Of a stretch of 64,000 nt of DNA, positions 18,001 through 27,000 are shown in pieces; the first letter of the stretch is position 1, and every line of letters begins with the position of its first letter. The stretch lies in the NCBI GenBank assembly GCA_963817955.1, contig CAWFQK010000003.1:160001-224000 (forward strand), given 5' to 3'. Made by a program: the position numbers. The stretch comes from an uncultured Gemmatimonadaceae bacterium (GTDB lineage: Bacteria > Gemmatimonadota > Gemmatimonadetes > Gemmatimonadales > Gemmatimonadaceae).

Positions 18001-21000
18001 CGATCAGGGTCGGGGAAACGCCGCGTGGCGCGGAAGACCGTCAGGATTTCGACGCACGAATCTCGCAACTCGTAGACGATGCGATAGCTGCCGTGAATCA
18101 CTTCTCGCACGGTGGACTCGCCCAGTTCCGGCACGACGCGCCCACTCTCTGGGAACTGAGTCAGCCGCGTAACCGCATGCACCAGTCGGTCGACGACCAC
18201 GGCGGCATACCGCGGTGAGGTGCGCGCAATGAAGGCTGAGATCTCGCTCAGATCATTGACCGCCGCGGCAGACCAGACGATGCCCGGAGAAGTCACCGCG
18301 CGGAGAAGCGGCGAACCACCTCGTCGTGGCTAATGGTCCGCCCCGCCTGGAGGTCGGCCCGACCGCGCTCGATGCTTTCAAGGAAATACAGGCGCTCCAT
18401 GGCGTCCTCGAGCGTCGCATCGTCGGGAAGCTGTTCGATGGCGTGAAGAGCGAGTTGCTTGGGCGACGAATCAGCCATGAGAACTCCGGGGTCTCGGTGC
18501 GAACCGAAAGATATGCGAAGTGCGTACTCGATGAAGAGCTGAGCTCCGGAAGTTGGCCGAAGAATTGTGTCGGTCCTCAGCCTCAGAGGATCACTGCGGA
18601 AGAGTCGATTCACGGAAGAGCAAACCGTGCAGGTCATGCAGGAGTGGGATGCCGGCGGCAAGATCGCCGATCAAGCGCTGAACCTTCAGGTCATGAAGGA
18701 CCTCATCCAGTTCTCGTCAGTGGGAGTCTGACCGGGGCCGCTATCGGCCCACAGGTGTCTGGACGAGTTGGCGCACACGGCAGCCGTGCAGCAGGCCCGG
18801 TGAATACCGCCACGAAGTGAACGTCAGCCGGGCCTCCATGACAACGGCCGAATCGCTGACCTTCAGTGCACGAAAGGTGCGCGGCTGTGGCACGCCGACA
18901 GTATCGACTACGAACTGAATGAGATTATCAGGATTACGGACGGCCGCGGTCGGATGCACCCCCGCGGCGGTATCAGGCAGCCAGCGGACGGGCGTGGCCA
19001 TCTGGTACTCGAAGTGGATGCCTGAATCGGCACATACCGGAGACTGGCCGAATACCGTCGTGGGAAGTGCGAGCAGCGCGAGCATTAAGAGGAGTCTCAT
19101 CGGCGTCGTCCAATAGTAGTGTGTGCCAGTCTAGAAAGTATAACTGGGATGGCCTCCGACCATCGCGTGGGGCAATCGTCAGATGAAGGTCATGCGGGCC
19201 GCTTCCCGCTTGCCTTGGGCGAAACCGGCACGAGCGGTGGGGATACGGGTCGCCAGGTCCATCAGGTTCGTGCCCATTGCGGCTCGGGAATCGGCGTCCG
19301 GCGTAATCACCTCGACGCGGCTGCGCTGTTTGCGCAGGTCCTCGACCTGGCTTGCCAAGTCCGTGCGCCATTCCGGTGCCCTGCGCAGGCCCTCGAACTG
19401 TCCGGGTTCTGTCCGGGTCCGTCCGCCCAATGGCGAGAGCACCACGACGTTCGCATAGCCCGAGGCAAGGTCGGCGTTTTCGGCGGAGCGCACGCCACCG
19501 TCTATGTAGCGAGCGCCGTTGATGCGGTGCGTGGGGACCAGACCAGGCAGCGCGCAGCTCGCGGTGACCGCGTCCACCAGCTCGACGCCGGAATCGCGGT
19601 CGAACGCAGCCAACTCGCCGGTGTGTGCGTCGATGGCCGTCACGATCATCGGCCTGTCCGGCCATTCAGGGCGAGGCAACCTGGCGGCGACCGTTGCGCG
19701 CCGCTGTTGCGCCGCGGGTTCGAGTATGGAGTCGCTTTCCAACCCGAACGCGCCCATCGCACGCTGTAGGTCGGCTGCCGAGGTGGTGGCGGCGCCGATC
19801 ACCAGATCGGCGGCCTCTGTCATATCGAGACCACCTTCGGCTAGACCTGCGATGATACCGTCAGCCACGTGTTTCCGGCAGCACCACCACCACCGAGAAC
19901 CAGAGCAACTCTGTGAGTCATTTACCCACTATATGCAATCGTCCTTGGAGACGCCAATGCGCCCCATGTCGGCAGAGCCTGCTACCTTTCCTGCTCGGTC
20001 AATCATCTATCTCGAACAGGTGGCAAGAGACACCTTTGCGCGAGTAGCATTAGGGAATGCCTCCTTCCCCGCCACGTGGTACGCCCGTTCCTGACCTGCT
20101 CTACGCGCAGGCCCGCGCCGACCTTGCCGCGGGGCGGTGGCGAAAAGCGCGCGACGCCTTCAAGGAACTCTGCAAAGGTGATCGCGCCACATTCCAGCCA
20201 CTCCTCGTGGAAGCGAATGTCGGGCTCGCCCGCGCCATGCTGGCCAAGGGCCTGATCTCCGACGCACGACAGGTTCTGTCGTACCTCCGGAGGATCGCTT
20301 CTCCGGCAACCATCACCGCGCTCGATGCTGAGATCGCCGCATGTGCAGCGAAGTCGCCGAGCGCCGCTCCCGATCCGGTCGCGCTCCTCGCGGATGGTGC
20401 TCTGGCGCCGGACGAACAGCGCAGGGTGGCGGATCAACTCGTCGTCGCATTCACGAGCGGCAGCATAGACACCGCGTCACCAGCGTCCGCACAGGTGGTG
20501 GCCGATCTTCGCGCGATTCATCAGGCGATCGAATCCGTGTGCCACGGAGACCACGAGCGCGCGATGGAGTATGTGCGTCCCCTCAAACGAGAATCCGTGT
20601 TCGCCCACTGGCGACTCTTTGTGCGTGCGGTGGCAGCGTTTCAGCGAGGTGACGCAGACAAGGCCGTGCAGTACTTCGAGGAATTGCCGGCGTCCTCGGT
20701 GCCTGGGCGGGCATGCGATGCGTGGCTCCTTGCGCTTGGCAAGCAAATCGACACTGGACGAGGCGCCGAATCGGAAGCCGTGCTCGAAGCGGCCGGAACG
20801 CTGGCTGGTGAACCTGGATGGGGCCGTGCGCTGGCCCGGGCCGAGGTGATGTGGCGCGCAGGTAGGCATGCATCATCGTATCGCGCAGTCGCTGGCGCGA
20901 AGGGGTCTTTTCCATCGGACGGGGCGGACTTTTGCTCCGCGCTCTCAGCCTTCTTTTTCAATGCCATCTTCGCGCTTCCGGAAGATCAGCGCTACGAGTA

Positions 21001-24000: not shown

Positions 24001-27000
24001 GGTGCGGATCATCAATGAGCCCACCGCTGCGGCGCTCGCTTATGGCGCCGGCGACACCCCCGACGAGACGATCGTCGTCTATGATCTCGGCGGCGGCACC
24101 TTTGACGTGTCGGTCGTTGTCGTGCAGGAGGGAGTGGTCGAGGTCCGCGCGAGTCATGGCGATACGCACCTGGGCGGCGACGACTTCGATCAATTGCTCG
24201 TCGAGCACGCACTCCGCGAGTTCGAGCGTCGTCACGGCACCAATCTCTCGGGAAACGACCGGGTGCTTCGCCGGTTGGGCATCGTACTCGAGCGCGCCAA
24301 ACGCCGGCTGTCCGACGAACCGTTCGTCGCCGTGCGAGAGGAGTACCTGGACGGCACGCATCATCTCGACATGGAGATCGAGCGCGGTGCGTATGAGGCG
24401 ATGATCGCGCCACTCCTTGAGAAGACGCTTCTCTCGGTTCATCAGGCAATGCGGGGCGCGGCCTTGCTGCCGGGCGCCATCGATCGCGTCATGCTCGTTG
24501 GTGGTTCCACTCGCACGCCCCTTGTTCATGCCATGTTGCGTGAGCGGCTGCAGATGGAGCCGAGATGGGAGATAGATCCGGATCTGATCGTCGCGATGGG
24601 CGCGGCAATTCAGGGCGCCGTGCTGGCCGGGCAGAAGCGTCATTCGATTCTCGTCGATATCACACCGCATACGTTCAACACGACTACGCTGGGGATGATG
24701 GACGGCATGACTCGTCTCGTGTCCGTGCCCATCATTCCGAGGAATACCCCACTTCCCGCAAGCAAGTCGGAAGTCTTCTTCACGATGTACGACAATCAGG
24801 ACGCCGTGGAGGTGGACGCGCGCCAGGGCGAGGCGACCGTTCCCGAGCTGAATGCACTCGTGGGCGAGTTCTTGGTGGAGGGACTCAGCCAAGTGCCCGC
24901 CGGGAGCCCCATCGTCGTCCACTTCGAGCTCGACCTCAGCGGCGTGCTCCGTGTGACAGCGACGGAAAAGCAGACCGGTCTGGCGAAGACGGTCACGATG
25001 GACACGCGGGGTACCCACGTGCTGAACGTGGACGAGGCGCGCCGCAACATCGCGTCGTTGCTGGAGCCATTGGTCGTGCGCGCCGAGGACGCGGAGTCTG
25101 ACGACGATGCCAGTGACGCTTCCGAAGCGCGAGAGCGGTTACTGGCGACCGCCAAGGACCTCCGGAAACGTGGCGAAGCATTGCTGGCGAAGAACGTCAA
25201 TGACGATGATGCGCGGGAGATTCGCGATCTGATTCACGCGAGCGCCGGAGCGATCACGGGGCGCGACTGGGGGCACCTCACCGAGATGAACGACAAGTTG
25301 TCCGATCTCGTTTTCTATCTCGAGGACTGACGTGCGGGTATCCTGTCCGGCGTGCGGCAAGACCATGGTGGCTGCGCTCGCCGCCGATGTGGCGTGCGAC
25401 AGATGCGGATGCGATCTGTCGCGGCTCCGTGATATCCTCGTTGCGGCGGCGGCGCGCCTCCAGTTGGCACGATCGGCCCTGGCGACGGGCGAGTATGAAG
25501 TCGCGCTTTCGTACGCCGACGAGTCGTGGTCATTGGCGCACAATCCACTGTGTGTGGACGTCGCGTGCCTGGCTGCGTCCGCTGGTGGCTACGTCGGCGA
25601 TCTCGTGCGCTGGCAGCGCCGTGGAGGTGGTGCGTCAGACTCTGGTCTATCACCGCGGACTGCGTGATGTACGCCGTAGTGCGCCGCGAGCGGCGCATTG
25701 TGGGCAGGCTCTCTCACCCCGAACACAGCAAGCAACGTTATGCGGAAAGGCGTACCGACGCTCCGTGGGCGGCGGCGTACAGCATGTCCGGATCCAGATC
25801 CACCCCATTCGGCCACACGATCGTGCCCGCGTCTGCGTCCACGGAGACGCGCGCGAAGAAGCTCGGATCCTGTAGGGGCGCGATCTTGACCGGCGACTCG
25901 TCCGAGTGGAGCCGACGCCAATTCTCAAGCAGTTCGGCTTCGTGGAGTGTAGTCCACTCCACCACGAGCGCCAGGCTCGAGGCGGAAGGTTGCCGGAGAG
26001 GAGCCCGACTGGTTGGATCTGCACCTACGCCTCTAGGAATACGGCGGTCAGATGTTGTAGGGTGATCATGTTAGCTCGCTCGGGTGTGGAACTCGAAGGC
26101 AAGTCACCGTAGCCGCCACGACAGACCCACGCGGGTGGGTTGGGCACCCAATCTCGTTATATGGCCGCTCCGCGATGTCCGTCTAGCCTTCGCCTAGCAC
26201 GCCTAGCACTGGTGTATGCGAAGGCAGGATCCCGGCGGTCGCCGAGCGTGTCAGCGGTAACGTCCGGCCCCAATCTGGACCGAGCGGCGGCGGGCTTCTC
26301 ACGTAGAGTGCAACCGGCAAGCGTTGGCGGGTTATCGCCGTGCCTCCAGGGCGAGCGCTGCGCTCCTGCAGGAAACGGTGTGCAAACCGCGATGCTTGCA
26401 GCTGTGAGAGCGAGGCGGATACGCGAACGCATCGTGATCCGATGAGAGGGTTGGACGCTCTCTAACGCCGAGTATCACCTGCAGGCGAATTCACAAGAGC
26501 GGCGGTGAAGCCGCCGTCAACCTTGGCTCGCCTGCCTGGTGCATGCAACGTTAGCCGTCACGGCGAGTGATCGTCCAGTCGATTTCGTCTTGTCGCACAT
26601 GTCGACAGGCGAGAACGACGATCTCGTCGCCGAAGATCTCGTACACCACGCTGTACGGAAACCGGTGAAGCAGTGCGCGACGGACTTGCCCTTCTTCGGT
26701 CACGGCTCGATGCACCTGTGGAAAGATCGCGAGCACCTCAACCGTCGCATCGAGTTCGCCAAGGATGGCACGGCCGAGCCCACGGACCTGTGATTCGTAC
26801 CACCTTCGGGCTTCTCGAATCTCCGCGCGCGCCTCCGGCCGAAACCGAACGCGCACGAGCTTCAGCCAGTCCGGCGCGGACCGCGCGCATCGGCGCGATC
26901 GTCCGCCTCTTGATCAGCGGCCAGCTCTGAGCGAACGGTCTTCCAGTCGACGGCAGCGGAGGGATCACGACGATGCGCGGCGCGACGGGTTTCGATGAGC

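Follow-up and report, generated by a model that had tools for sequence, protein, structure and literature searches.

In the HscA-HscB-IscU system, a specialised Hsp70 and a dedicated small J-protein serve a single client by means of a short specific motif, which in IscU is LPPVK. HscA is described as independent of GrpE (PMC8215388), and HscB retains the HPD triad of J-domains. Another accessory Hsp70 of E. coli, HscC, is encoded in one cluster with a small group of dedicated J-proteins, DjlB and DjlC, and with YbeQ/YbeT; according to the accounts in PMC8215388 and PMC10410713, the J-proteins of this locus carry the variant motif HPE, and in PMC8215388 HscC is described as having no GrpE, its GrpE contacts being absent. 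YbeQ and YbeT are TPR-like Sel1-repeat proteins, and the HscC system occurs sporadically. In eukaryotes, the TPR proteins Hop and CHIP read the conserved acidic EEVD end of Hsp70, which is preceded by a flexible linker.

Here we describe an accessory Hsp70 cassette from an uncultured Gemmatimonadaceae bacterium, lying within the 64,000-nucleotide stretch of DNA that was analysed (hereafter, the window). It is a close-packed operon of five genes on the forward strand, 20057-25667, in which adjacent genes touch or overlap (gaps of 9, -16, 22 and 1 nt). The five ORFs reported in an earlier note on this DNA are all at the positions given there, and the operon is real, with Pfam family matches for each of its genes. 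The first (P0001; 20057..22552, +) encodes an 831-aa TPR/alpha-helical scaffold protein (TPR_19, 1.5e-10; TPR_2, 5.6e-9; TPR_1), and is followed by a 101-aa J-like protein (22562..22867, +; DnaJ, 1.6e-7), a 234-aa GrpE-type nucleotide exchange factor (22852..23556, +; GrpE, 6.9e-17; alternative start Met at 22867), a 583-aa Hsp70 (23579..25330, +; HSP70, 1.9e-138) and a 111-aa zinc-ribbon protein (25332..25667, +; Zn_ribbon_TFIIB, 0.003). The Hsp70 ORF (23519-25330) is open from a TTG at 23519, the likely start being the ATG at 23579. The zinc-ribbon protein carries CPxC...CxRCGC (25344-25412) ahead of a helical, TPR-like C-terminal half; residues C5, P6, C8, C22, R24, C25, G26, S65 and W66 are invariant in its alignment with 23 relatives, and the named Atlas clusters nearest to it are small TPR proteins. 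The cassette had been placed beside the housekeeping dnaK-grpE-dnaJ genes. It is additional to that set but not adjacent to it: dnaK lies on contig C2 and grpE-dnaJ on contig C4 of the same genome, both away from the cassette contig.

The cassette is widespread in soil and peat bacteria, yet unnamed. The earlier description of it as rare is correct for reference genomes, where it occurs in 1/401 genomes of the phylum and 2/31 of the genus, but not for metagenomes. The 24 clusters and 3 loci previously given for the TPR protein were reproduced, but they reflect word-index searches; HMMER over all representatives gives 718 TPR relatives at E<=1e-3 (233 at E<=1e-30), most of the 718 matching over the full length. 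The order TPR-J-GrpE-Hsp70 is kept, as far as each contig extends, across 79 loci from metagenomes. The cassette has its family-specific marker in the TPR protein, whose gene leads every related locus; where the contig has room, it is accompanied by the J-like gene in 60/60 loci, GrpE in 49/50 and Hsp70 in 43/43, counts that include near-duplicate loci. Of 30 loci with room for a zinc-ribbon gene, 24 carry one, and the six exceptions all fall in one divergent clade. Across 31 complete loci, the pairwise identity matrices of the TPR, J, GrpE and Hsp70 proteins correlate with Spearman coefficients of 0.86-0.94; the parts are thus inherited together, and the view of a self-contained accessory Hsp70 set is supported. 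The second Gemmatimonadaceae locus (L001), matched earlier by ORF size and order, was confirmed by family search: TPR, DnaJ, GrpE and HSP70 follow in order, and its Hsp70 likewise ends in ...LSDLVFYLED.

The cassette Hsp70 matches the Pfam HSP70 profile at positions 1-585 of 599 and is 41% identical to the genome's own DnaK over 510 aa, in line with the earlier estimate of about 40%. Its scores fall below the equivalog cut-offs of both DnaK (483 vs. 648) and HscA (393 vs. 708). In a phylogenetic tree, a branch of 2.49 (support 99/99) parts the cassette Hsp70s from DnaK and HscA together, while HscC stands far away (end branch of 6.4; 38% identity over 460 aa). Judged from its sequence, then, the cassette Hsp70 forms a lineage of its own, distinct from those of DnaK, HscA and HscC, a point not made before. 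With HscC it shares a deletion of DnaK residues 79-102 and a sporadic occurrence, and the TPR protein of the cassette has its parallel in YbeQ/YbeT; unlike HscC, it has a GrpE of its own and ends in FYLED. The cassette also differs from the HscA system in possessing a GrpE and in lying outside any isc context.

The resemblance to DnaK-DnaJ-GrpE extends to the three-part logic, the catalytic residues, the linker, the R167/N170/T173 surface and a predicted dependence on GrpE. In an alignment of 31 cassette Hsp70s, D8, K70, E171, D194, T199 and D201 are kept in 31/31, as are R167, N170, T173 and the linker I-L-V-D, and the protein is ATPase-competent by sequence, with its interdomain linker and substrate-binding domain intact. 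The substrate cleft is still hydrophobic but changed, with T417P in 30/31 and bulkier arch residues. Compared with DnaK, however, cassette Hsp70s are only 36-41% identical, their GrpE loop is shortened and the disordered C-terminal tail is absent; moreover, the J partner lacks the Zn-finger/CTD client-binding domains of DnaJ, and a TPR subunit is obligatory.

The J-like protein scores 31.7 bits against the Pfam DnaJ cut-off of 27.8 over residues 2-56. It had been taken for only a J-domain; a J-like domain is indeed present, but it is joined to a conserved 45-aa C-terminal extension, and at the site of the catalytic H-P-D, as aligned with the HPD of solved J-domains, it has P-P-D (22649..22657). 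The 56 distinct family sequences that cover this site all read [P/S/T]-P-[D/E], and none has the His, whereas the genome's own DnaJ carries HPD. Absence of HPD is thus a constant feature of the cassette J-domain, newly recognised here. In a survey of about 280,000 J-proteins, HPD is reported as near universal and HPE as accounting for about 1% (PMC10410713). The J-proteins of both the hscC locus and the cassette carry variant motifs, but DjlB and DjlC, tail-anchored and about 480 aa long, keep the His, and HscB keeps the whole triad. The cassette GrpE falls below the cut-off of all NCBIfam GrpE equivalogs and only 73 aa of it can be aligned with the housekeeping GrpE (37% identity); it is a dedicated, divergent member of the cassette.

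The shared ...LSDLVFYLED tail pointed out in the earlier note turns out to be a true hallmark of the family. The terminal F-Y-L-E-D (25313..25327) is found in 33/34 cassette loci, the remaining one having FYLEE, and in 31/31 database proteins. Four of the last ten columns are invariant and the last five are all at least 90% conserved, against 7% invariant columns in the rest of the lid. This conservation, together with an end in Glu-Asp-COOH, as in EEVD, would suit a TPR protein that acts as a Hop/CHIP-like co-chaperone, its main task being to read FYLED by way of a carboxylate clamp. No repeat protein other than the TPR protein is found in every cassette, and the clade without the zinc-ribbon gene still has FYLED, so the zinc-ribbon protein is not its partner. 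The analogy is nevertheless weaker than it appears, because in the alignment the last ten residues fall at the end of lid helix E of DnaK, and no disordered or Gly/Pro-rich linker lies ahead of them. FYLED thus looks like the end of a lid helix that it adjoins directly, rather than a flexible EEVD-like tail, which is also new. At most about five residues would be free, while EEVD peptides bind in an extended form. A PDB search with the TPR region returned only generic, consensus or designed TPRs, with Hop, CHIP and PP5 absent from the matches, and the TPR protein matches none of the clamp-type TPR domains of this kind in sequence; packing, or binding of J or GrpE, could cause the invariance. 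We consider it rather unlikely that such reading is the central mechanism, although a putative contact between FYLED and the TPR protein is compatible, as a docking step, with the explanation that we prefer, namely a private Hsp70 machine in which the TPR protein has the role of adaptor.

A further new feature lies at the C-terminal end of this proposed adaptor, the TPR protein: a Pro/Lys-rich linker is followed there by D-P-N-Q-L-D-L-F in the family consensus, which looks like a motif for binding the beta sliding clamp; in the window it reads N-P-D-Q-G-D-L-F (22526..22549). Pol II and Pol IV as well as Pol III alpha, all partners of the clamp, similarly bear a terminal Q-L-[D/N/E]-L-F on a disordered tail. 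The definition that we used, Q-phi-x-[L/M]-[F/L], often found in C-terminal tails and with QLDLF as the strongest binder, was taken from PMC11139829. Many TPR tails are identical to QLDLF and others to the Pol V form QLNLF. The portion of that paper available to us names no chaperones or TPR proteins among clamp partners, and the word 'chaperone' does not appear in it (PMC11139829). Among 142 TPR family members of at least 780 aa, 97 have Q-x-x-[LMIF]-[FL] no more than three residues from the end, eight more have a six-residue form and 37 have none; the strict form Q-[LIVMA]-x-[LM]-[FL] is met in 60. Position by position, Q (97), L (44), D (49), L (91) and F (94) are the commonest; position 3 is D, E or N in 85/97, and Pro makes up 26%, and Lys+Arg 20%, of the 30 residues ahead of the Q. 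A terminal Q..[LM]F occurs in 3/3445 gene-like ORFs of this genome, which is not rare enough for a single case to be telling, so the argument is based on how far the motif is conserved within the family. Besides the TPR protein, the ORFs concerned are those of RuvB and of a DUF72 protein; the DUF72 fold is related to UV-damage endonuclease.

Several observations count against clamp binding. The window's own Q-G-D-L-F has Gly at position 2, which lowered clamp affinity in peptide studies (PMC11139829); 37/142 members have no motif; and DNA replication or repair is not consistently represented among the flanking genes, AddAB-like genes being found upstream in a single lineage. The known clamp motif does not include the conserved D-P-N prefix, and, given the D-P before the Q, the receptor may be a different one, such as the substrate site of the cassette's own Hsp70.

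The TPR protein might itself be the client, forming an assembly which the J-like protein binds and the Hsp70 disassembles by gripping the terminal Q-L-x-L-F, much as clathrin is handled with auxilin; the clathrin heavy chain offers a parallel in its QLMLT motif. The TPR protein is large and built of helical repeats, its tail is disordered and its terminal motif is rich in Leu and Phe; the conserved extension of the bare J-protein could bind such a scaffold, the altered cleft suggests a special ligand, and every receptor would lie inside the cassette, matching its self-contained nature. However, the invariant Gln and acidic-type position 3 are typical of clamp motifs, and DnaK-type substrate sites disfavour acidic residues. 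Members with polybasic tails have no such site, and oligomerisation of the TPR protein would have to be assumed. We regard this scheme as unlikely.

A role in conflict or defence, raised in the earlier note, found no support. In such a role the Hsp70 module would sense or disable an invader, akin to GTPase-centred conflict systems: GAP1-N2 systems are reported to combine HSP70, GrpE and DnaJ- or TPR-fused proteins in one neighbourhood, separate from the housekeeping set (Kaur et al. 2020, PMC7159879). The distribution of the cassette is patchy, and its segment of about 24 kb has no collinear counterpart in five same-genus genomes. The toxin-antitoxin surroundings, described as an island full of such genes, are real but modest: ParE (17988-18296), a ParE fragment (31027-31203), an Unstab_antitox domain (26862-27392), DUF2442 (25738-25965) and a DDE_5 transposase (27857-29134). 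PIN, Fic, Uma2 and RHS genes also lie close to some other loci. On the other hand, a PADLOC search of the cassette gave no match below E 0.02, consistent with the earlier result for its five genes, and its neighbourhood has no conserved effector gene, be it for a GTPase, a nuclease, a protease or another product. GAP1-N2 systems, by comparison, are centred on a GTPase and FNIII repeats, neither of which accompanies the cassette, and are described mainly from actinobacteria and firmicutes (PMC7159879). The flanks of 22 other loci are varied and chiefly metabolic or housekeeping, with no flanking family recurrent beyond close kin; no relatives were found in the phage, plasmid and viral collections searched, and the GC content of the cassette is similar to that of the rest of the window. 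A conflict system is thus improbable. It is just as improbable that the cassette backs up the general DnaK system, whether redundantly or as a stress specialist, and has no specific client. A complete Hsp70/J/GrpE set whose catalytic residues are intact and the frequency of DnaK paralogues in bacteria with complex proteomes (PMC11019930, PMC13580251) would fit this reading, but the J partner has neither client-binding domains nor HPD, specific contacts are suggested by the TPR partner, which is obligatory, and by the two invariant terminal motifs, the CIRCE heat-shock operator occurs in 0/59 distinct upstream regions, and the cassette is missing from nearly all relatives.

Cassette conservation, non-recurrent flanks, the Hsp70 lineage, the J motif, the tail motif, the linker composition and the polybasic tails were all counted in favour of the explanation that we prefer, in which the five genes constitute a single operon that encodes a private Hsp70 machine, working beside the housekeeping DnaK system. 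That this machine is dedicated and insulated, with the TPR protein as adaptor, is probable. The altered J motif and private GrpE would insulate it from DnaK, DnaJ and GrpE, the TPR protein would be the scaffold or targeting subunit that chooses the client, and the invariant FYLED at the lid end may be a docking point for some cassette partner. Targeting to the clamp or to DNA by the TPR tail is a more tentative proposal, to which we give rather less than an even chance: the disordered Pro/Lys-rich tail with D-P-N-Q-L-D-L-F would hook the complex onto DNA-loaded beta sliding clamps, members that lack the motif are frequently polybasic at the end (e.g. Kuenenia, ...KKKKK), and in lineages with such polybasic tails the protein may bind DNA directly. 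The whole chain, clamp targeting included, likewise falls somewhat short of even. Given such hooking to clamps or DNA, the cassette Hsp70 would remodel or strip a protein complex on DNA, comparable to DnaK acting on replication initiator complexes; DnaK is described as disassembling replication complexes (PMC8215388).

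Five close-packed ORFs at positions 20057-25667 (+) of the window form a cassette that encodes, in order, an 831-aa TPR protein (Pfam TPR_19, TPR_2 and TPR_1), a 101-aa J-like protein, a 234-aa GrpE (Pfam GrpE, 6.9e-17), an Hsp70 of 583 aa from the ATG at 23579 (HSP70, 1.9e-138) and a 111-aa protein with a four-cysteine zinc ribbon. The operon described in the earlier note is thus borne out, as all of its ORFs are present with their family matches, and the second locus named there (L001, from a Gemmatimonadaceae MAG) carries the same five genes in the same order, as confirmed by family search. 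The operon is a second full set, since a housekeeping dnaK and grpE-dnaJ are also found in the genome. These housekeeping genes lie on other contigs, dnaK on C2 and grpE-dnaJ on C4. When compared with the PDB, the profile of the zinc-ribbon family returned insignificant zinc-ribbon matches only (E of at least 0.64).

The operon had been called rare, with 24 clusters and three genome loci for the TPR protein. These figures were reproduced, but they come from word-indexed searches: HMMER finds 718 relatives at E<=1e-3 among 1.84 billion representatives (341 at <=1e-10 and 233 at <=1e-30), most of them matched over the full length, at identities down to ~25%. Named members come from Candidatus Kuenenia (Planctomycetota), a Verrucomicrobiia MAG, Pedosphaera and Gemmatimonadaceae, and the nearest Atlas clusters lead to Verrucomicrobiota and Thermodesulfobacteriota. 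Among reference genomes the distribution is patchy: the cassette is found in 1 of 401 Gemmatimonadota genomes, namely the window's own, and in 2 of the 31 genomes of the genus, the second of which also has TPR, J, GrpE and Hsp70 genes in order. The public names of the cassette parts are only ‘hypothetical protein’, ‘TPR repeat protein’ or ‘molecular chaperone DnaK’, so the cassette is invisible in current annotation.

A metagenome scan with a 21-sequence alignment yielded 79 loci, the six-frame ORFs of which were searched with the window's five proteins. Among loci with enough contig, near-duplicates included, the J gene follows the TPR gene in 60/60, GrpE comes next in 49/50 (the single miss has 509 bases left), Hsp70 in 43/43 and the zinc-ribbon gene in 24/30. 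The loci that are devoid of the last gene (L073, L074, L076 and L082-L084, with L083 and L084 near-identical) constitute one divergent clade and have unrelated genes 3' instead. The pairwise identities of the four core proteins in 31 complete loci correlate, with Spearman values of 0.86-0.94 that are inflated by kinship; this fits inheritance of the cassette as a unit. A conserved sixth gene was rejected, as flanking families recur in six loci at most, and these are close kin. In L001, a gene for a 1076-aa Sortilin/BNR-repeat protein (11766-14996, +) begins right where the zinc-ribbon gene finishes; it follows the cassette in this locus only, and neither in the window nor in the other loci.

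The cassette Hsp70 belongs to the Hsp70 superfamily (PF00012; profile positions 1-585 of 599, 462.8 bits), the hallmarks of which are an actin-like ATPase domain with its catalytic residues, a conserved interdomain linker, a beta-sandwich substrate domain and a helical lid. The catalytic residues D8, K70, E171, D194, T199 and D201 and the I-L-V-D linker are kept in 31/31 cassette Hsp70s, as is the R167/N170/T173 surface, which we take to be the J-domain contact seen in the DnaK-DnaJ structure 5NRO. The substrate cleft is still hydrophobic but altered, with T417P in 30/31 and bulkier arch residues, while in most of these proteins His and Ser take the place of D388 and V389 beside the linker. 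The sequence is 41% identical to the genome's own DnaK; for E. coli DnaK, HscA and HscC the values are 36%, 37% and 38%, respectively. In a maximum-likelihood tree the cassette Hsp70s are separated from E. coli DnaK, the own DnaK and HscA by a branch of 2.49 (support 99/99).

Three identities were considered and rejected. For DnaK, the equivalogs NF001413 and TIGR02350 score 483.1 against 648 and 475.7 against 822.55, respectively, both below cut-off. For HscA, the equivalog scores 393.1 against 708.55, the cassette has its own GrpE, and there are no isc genes nearby. As for HscC, the E. coli protein lies apart on a branch of 6.4, and the cassette has a GrpE and a J partner without the His. 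A deletion of DnaK residues 79-102 is common to the cassette Hsp70 and HscC, and passages of a review of bacterial Hsp70s report it in many DnaKs as well (PMC8215388). The ‘GrpE signature’ loop has lost 4 residues in the cassette Hsp70, compared to 10 in HscA and 6 in HscC; the same passages state that HscA and HscC work without GrpE, and they name DnaK, HscA and HscC as the only prokaryotic Hsp70 types (PMC8215388).

The J-like protein is recognised as a four-helix J-domain fold (PF00226; residues 2-56, 31.7 bits where the cut-off is 27.8) and aligns with solved J-domains, its P30-P31-D32 falling on their H-P-D. The His-Pro-Asp motif expected between helices II and III is absent, the window's protein having P-P-D in its place. 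The site is covered by 56 of the 57 distinct sequences of the family, and each of these reads [P/S/T]-P-[D/E]; none of the 56 has His at the first position, and two have it one position earlier (HPPE). The genome's own housekeeping DnaJ has a normal HPD. The 45-aa extension of the J-like protein (...PGDSPLD...MKEFLRSCSKT) is also conserved; a homologue search found no longer forms, which counts as weak evidence. GrpE is assigned with 62.1 bits against 25.8 (PF01025, the family marked by a C-terminal beta-domain that contacts Hsp70); it is a divergent member, because all 17 NCBIfam GrpE equivalogs fall below their own cut-offs. We infer from these sequences that the altered J motif and the changes in Hsp70 may represent a co-evolved specificity that would insulate the pair from DnaK/DnaJ. 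Of the arrangements already described, the E. coli hscC locus comes nearest, with its DjlB/DjlC and Sel1-repeat proteins. That locus is without GrpE, whereas the cassette has its own; and DjlB and DjlC have HPE, whereas the cassette J partner has no His. According to the parts consulted of a survey of ~280,000 J-proteins, HPD is present in the vast majority and HPE, including that of DjlB and DjlC, in ~1% (PMC10410713).

One rival explanation, put forward in the earlier note, takes as the central mechanism that the TPR protein reads the FYLED end of the Hsp70 as Hop and CHIP read EEVD. A common Hsp70 end does exist: FYLED is terminal in 33/34 related loci (FYLEE in the other one) and in 31/31 database proteins found with the last 69 residues, while invariance is seen in just 7% of the remaining lid columns. 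By alignment, the likeness to a free EEVD-like tail is limited. The ...LSDLVFYLED stretch aligns to the end of DnaK lid helix E, where the protein stops and DnaK's disordered tail is absent; therefore, it looks like a conserved lid end rather than a free tail. The carboxylate-clamp proteins Hop, CHIP and PP5 use a three-repeat TPR with Lys/Asn clamp residues and an extended EEVD peptide after a flexible linker. In the cassette Hsp70, FYLED comes without a linker, and the only PDB matches of the canonical TPR stretch (residues ~408-540) are generic, consensus or designed TPRs. FYLED may still serve as a docking site; its partner is not the zinc-ribbon protein, because the clade without that protein keeps FYLED.

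The other end to be considered is that of the TPR protein. In 142 family members of at least 780 aa, a set that includes P0028, an unrelated TPR protein, the pattern Q-x-x-[LMIF]-[FL] lies at most 3 residues from the C-terminus in 97, with a six-residue form in 8 more. The five-residue form is found within the last 25 residues in 105/142, and the strict form Q-[LIVMA]-x-[LM]-[FL] in 60/142. The tail logo reads P-D-P-N-Q-L-D-L-F, and the 30 residues before the motif are 26% Pro, 20% Lys+Arg and 13% hydrophobic, as against 5% Pro and 32% hydrophobic in the first 700 residues of the TPR protein. Passages of a 2024 review give the beta-clamp-binding motif as Q-phi-x-[L/M][F/L] or a six-residue form, list QLDLF as the strongest clamp-binding peptide, and note several clamp partners with the motif at the C-terminal tail (PMC11139829). 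The TPR family carries a putative motif of this kind in a disordered terminal region. With Q-G-D-L-F, the window's protein has a weak form of the motif, which fits the relaxed pattern only, and members without the motif often have a polybasic end (e.g. ...KRAHKKKKK in Kuenenia).

Among the 3445 gene-like ORFs of the window's own genome, a terminal Q..[LM]F is present in three only, namely: the TPR protein; RuvB (C2:946805-947830, -), ending ...AEQETLF; and a DUF72 protein (C5:199991-200818, -), ending ...GEQMSLF. The latter two may also have clamp-binding tails. The DUF72 fold is described as related to UV-damage endonuclease in the portion of a paper that we consulted (PMC11791011). dnaA and dnaN lie at C3:101058-104411, ~77 kb upstream of the cassette on the same contig, which places the window near the likely origin of replication. 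As an alternative to a clamp tether, the TPR tail could be part of a clathrin/auxilin-like system, in which the TPR protein is the client that assembles and its tail is the Hsp70's own grip. We tentatively favour, at somewhat less than even odds, a putative tether of the tail motif to DNA-loaded sliding clamps as the most likely targeting mode.

A redundant stress chaperone is a further alternative. The CIRCE heat-shock operator was found in 0/59 distinct regions upstream of the TPR gene at up to 5 mismatches of 18, no 8-mer is common to more than 15 of these 59 regions, and a promoter/terminator scan gave a result no better than shuffles.

The genomic setting bears on the remaining proposal, a role in conflict or defence. 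Five same-genus genomes share window positions 32.1-44.8 kb in collinear order, with 69-77% DNA identity; the ~24 kb at ~8400-32100 have no collinear counterpart in them. This segment contains the cassette, ParE (17988-18296) and a ParE fragment (31027-31203), antitoxin-type and other genes (Unstab_antitox domain, 26862-27392; DUF2442, 25738-25965; HTH_3, 12893-13207; DUF4256, 14136-14699), a DDE_5 transposase (27857-29134) and a patatin-like phospholipase gene (19179-19922, -) that looks degenerate. The N-terminal M-T-H-R-V-A-L-V-L-G-G-G-G-A-A-G of the latter lies in one frame that stops after 26 codons, the remainder is in another frame from ~19868 and matches Pfam Patatin profile positions 99-190 only, and no G-x-S-x-G was seen after ...DLVIG. 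The GC content of the region is unremarkable, and there is no integration-site signature, as a search of window positions 1-40000 gave no tRNA, tmRNA or Rfam family.

In 22 other loci the flanks are mainly metabolic or housekeeping, with scattered PIN, Fic, Uma2 and RHS genes. PIN-domain genes flank the cassette in L057 and L074, as do Uma2 genes in L074, L076 and L083. In two related peat loci (L013, 1082-2634; L020, 7091-8862), a nucleotidyltransferase gene and a Fic/DOC gene are located just 5' of the cassette. In L083 (2743-8828, +) and also L084, which represent one divergent lineage, AddAB-like genes for a PD-(D/E)XK nuclease and a UvrD-type helicase immediately precede the TPR gene in the same orientation; no other DNA-repair neighbour was seen. 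None of the five proteins matched a defence family of PADLOC-DB 2.0 at E<0.02, and plasmid, phage and viral collections held no relatives of the TPR protein. With flanks of this kind and no such relatives, the conflict role that the earlier note had raised is not supported and keeps a low probability.

Taken together, the safest statement is that the cassette probably encodes a dedicated, insulated Hsp70 machine with the TPR protein as its adaptor or scaffold. If the TPR protein were tethered to the clamp, the Hsp70 would remodel a complex on DNA; this would be in line with the classical role of DnaK on replication initiator complexes, as given in passages of the bacterial Hsp70 review (PMC8215388). 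The most extensive reading is a fourth prokaryotic Hsp70 type in which an insulated Hsp70/J/GrpE set, its TPR scaffold held by a putative C-terminal QLDLF-type tether to the replication sliding clamp, would be brought to DNA-loaded clamps and dismantle protein complexes on DNA, the J-domain would work without the canonical His of HPD, and FYLED would be the dock for the scaffold; taken as a whole, we hold it to be rather unlikely. Literature searches returned no description of the cassette; Barriot et al. 2020, which the reviews cite for the phylogeny of Hsp70s and J-proteins, may be relevant to whether the lineage is new.

Beside DnaK, HscA and HscC, the cassette would stand as a fourth type, widespread and uncharacterised, that brings its own exchange factor. 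Its strictly conserved J-domain, which never has the His of HPD, provides a natural and direct test of J-domain/Hsp70 specificity and of how insulation evolves. Finally, if the scaffold tail binds the sliding clamp, an Hsp70 machine would be linked to a replisome hub whose list of known partners is short.
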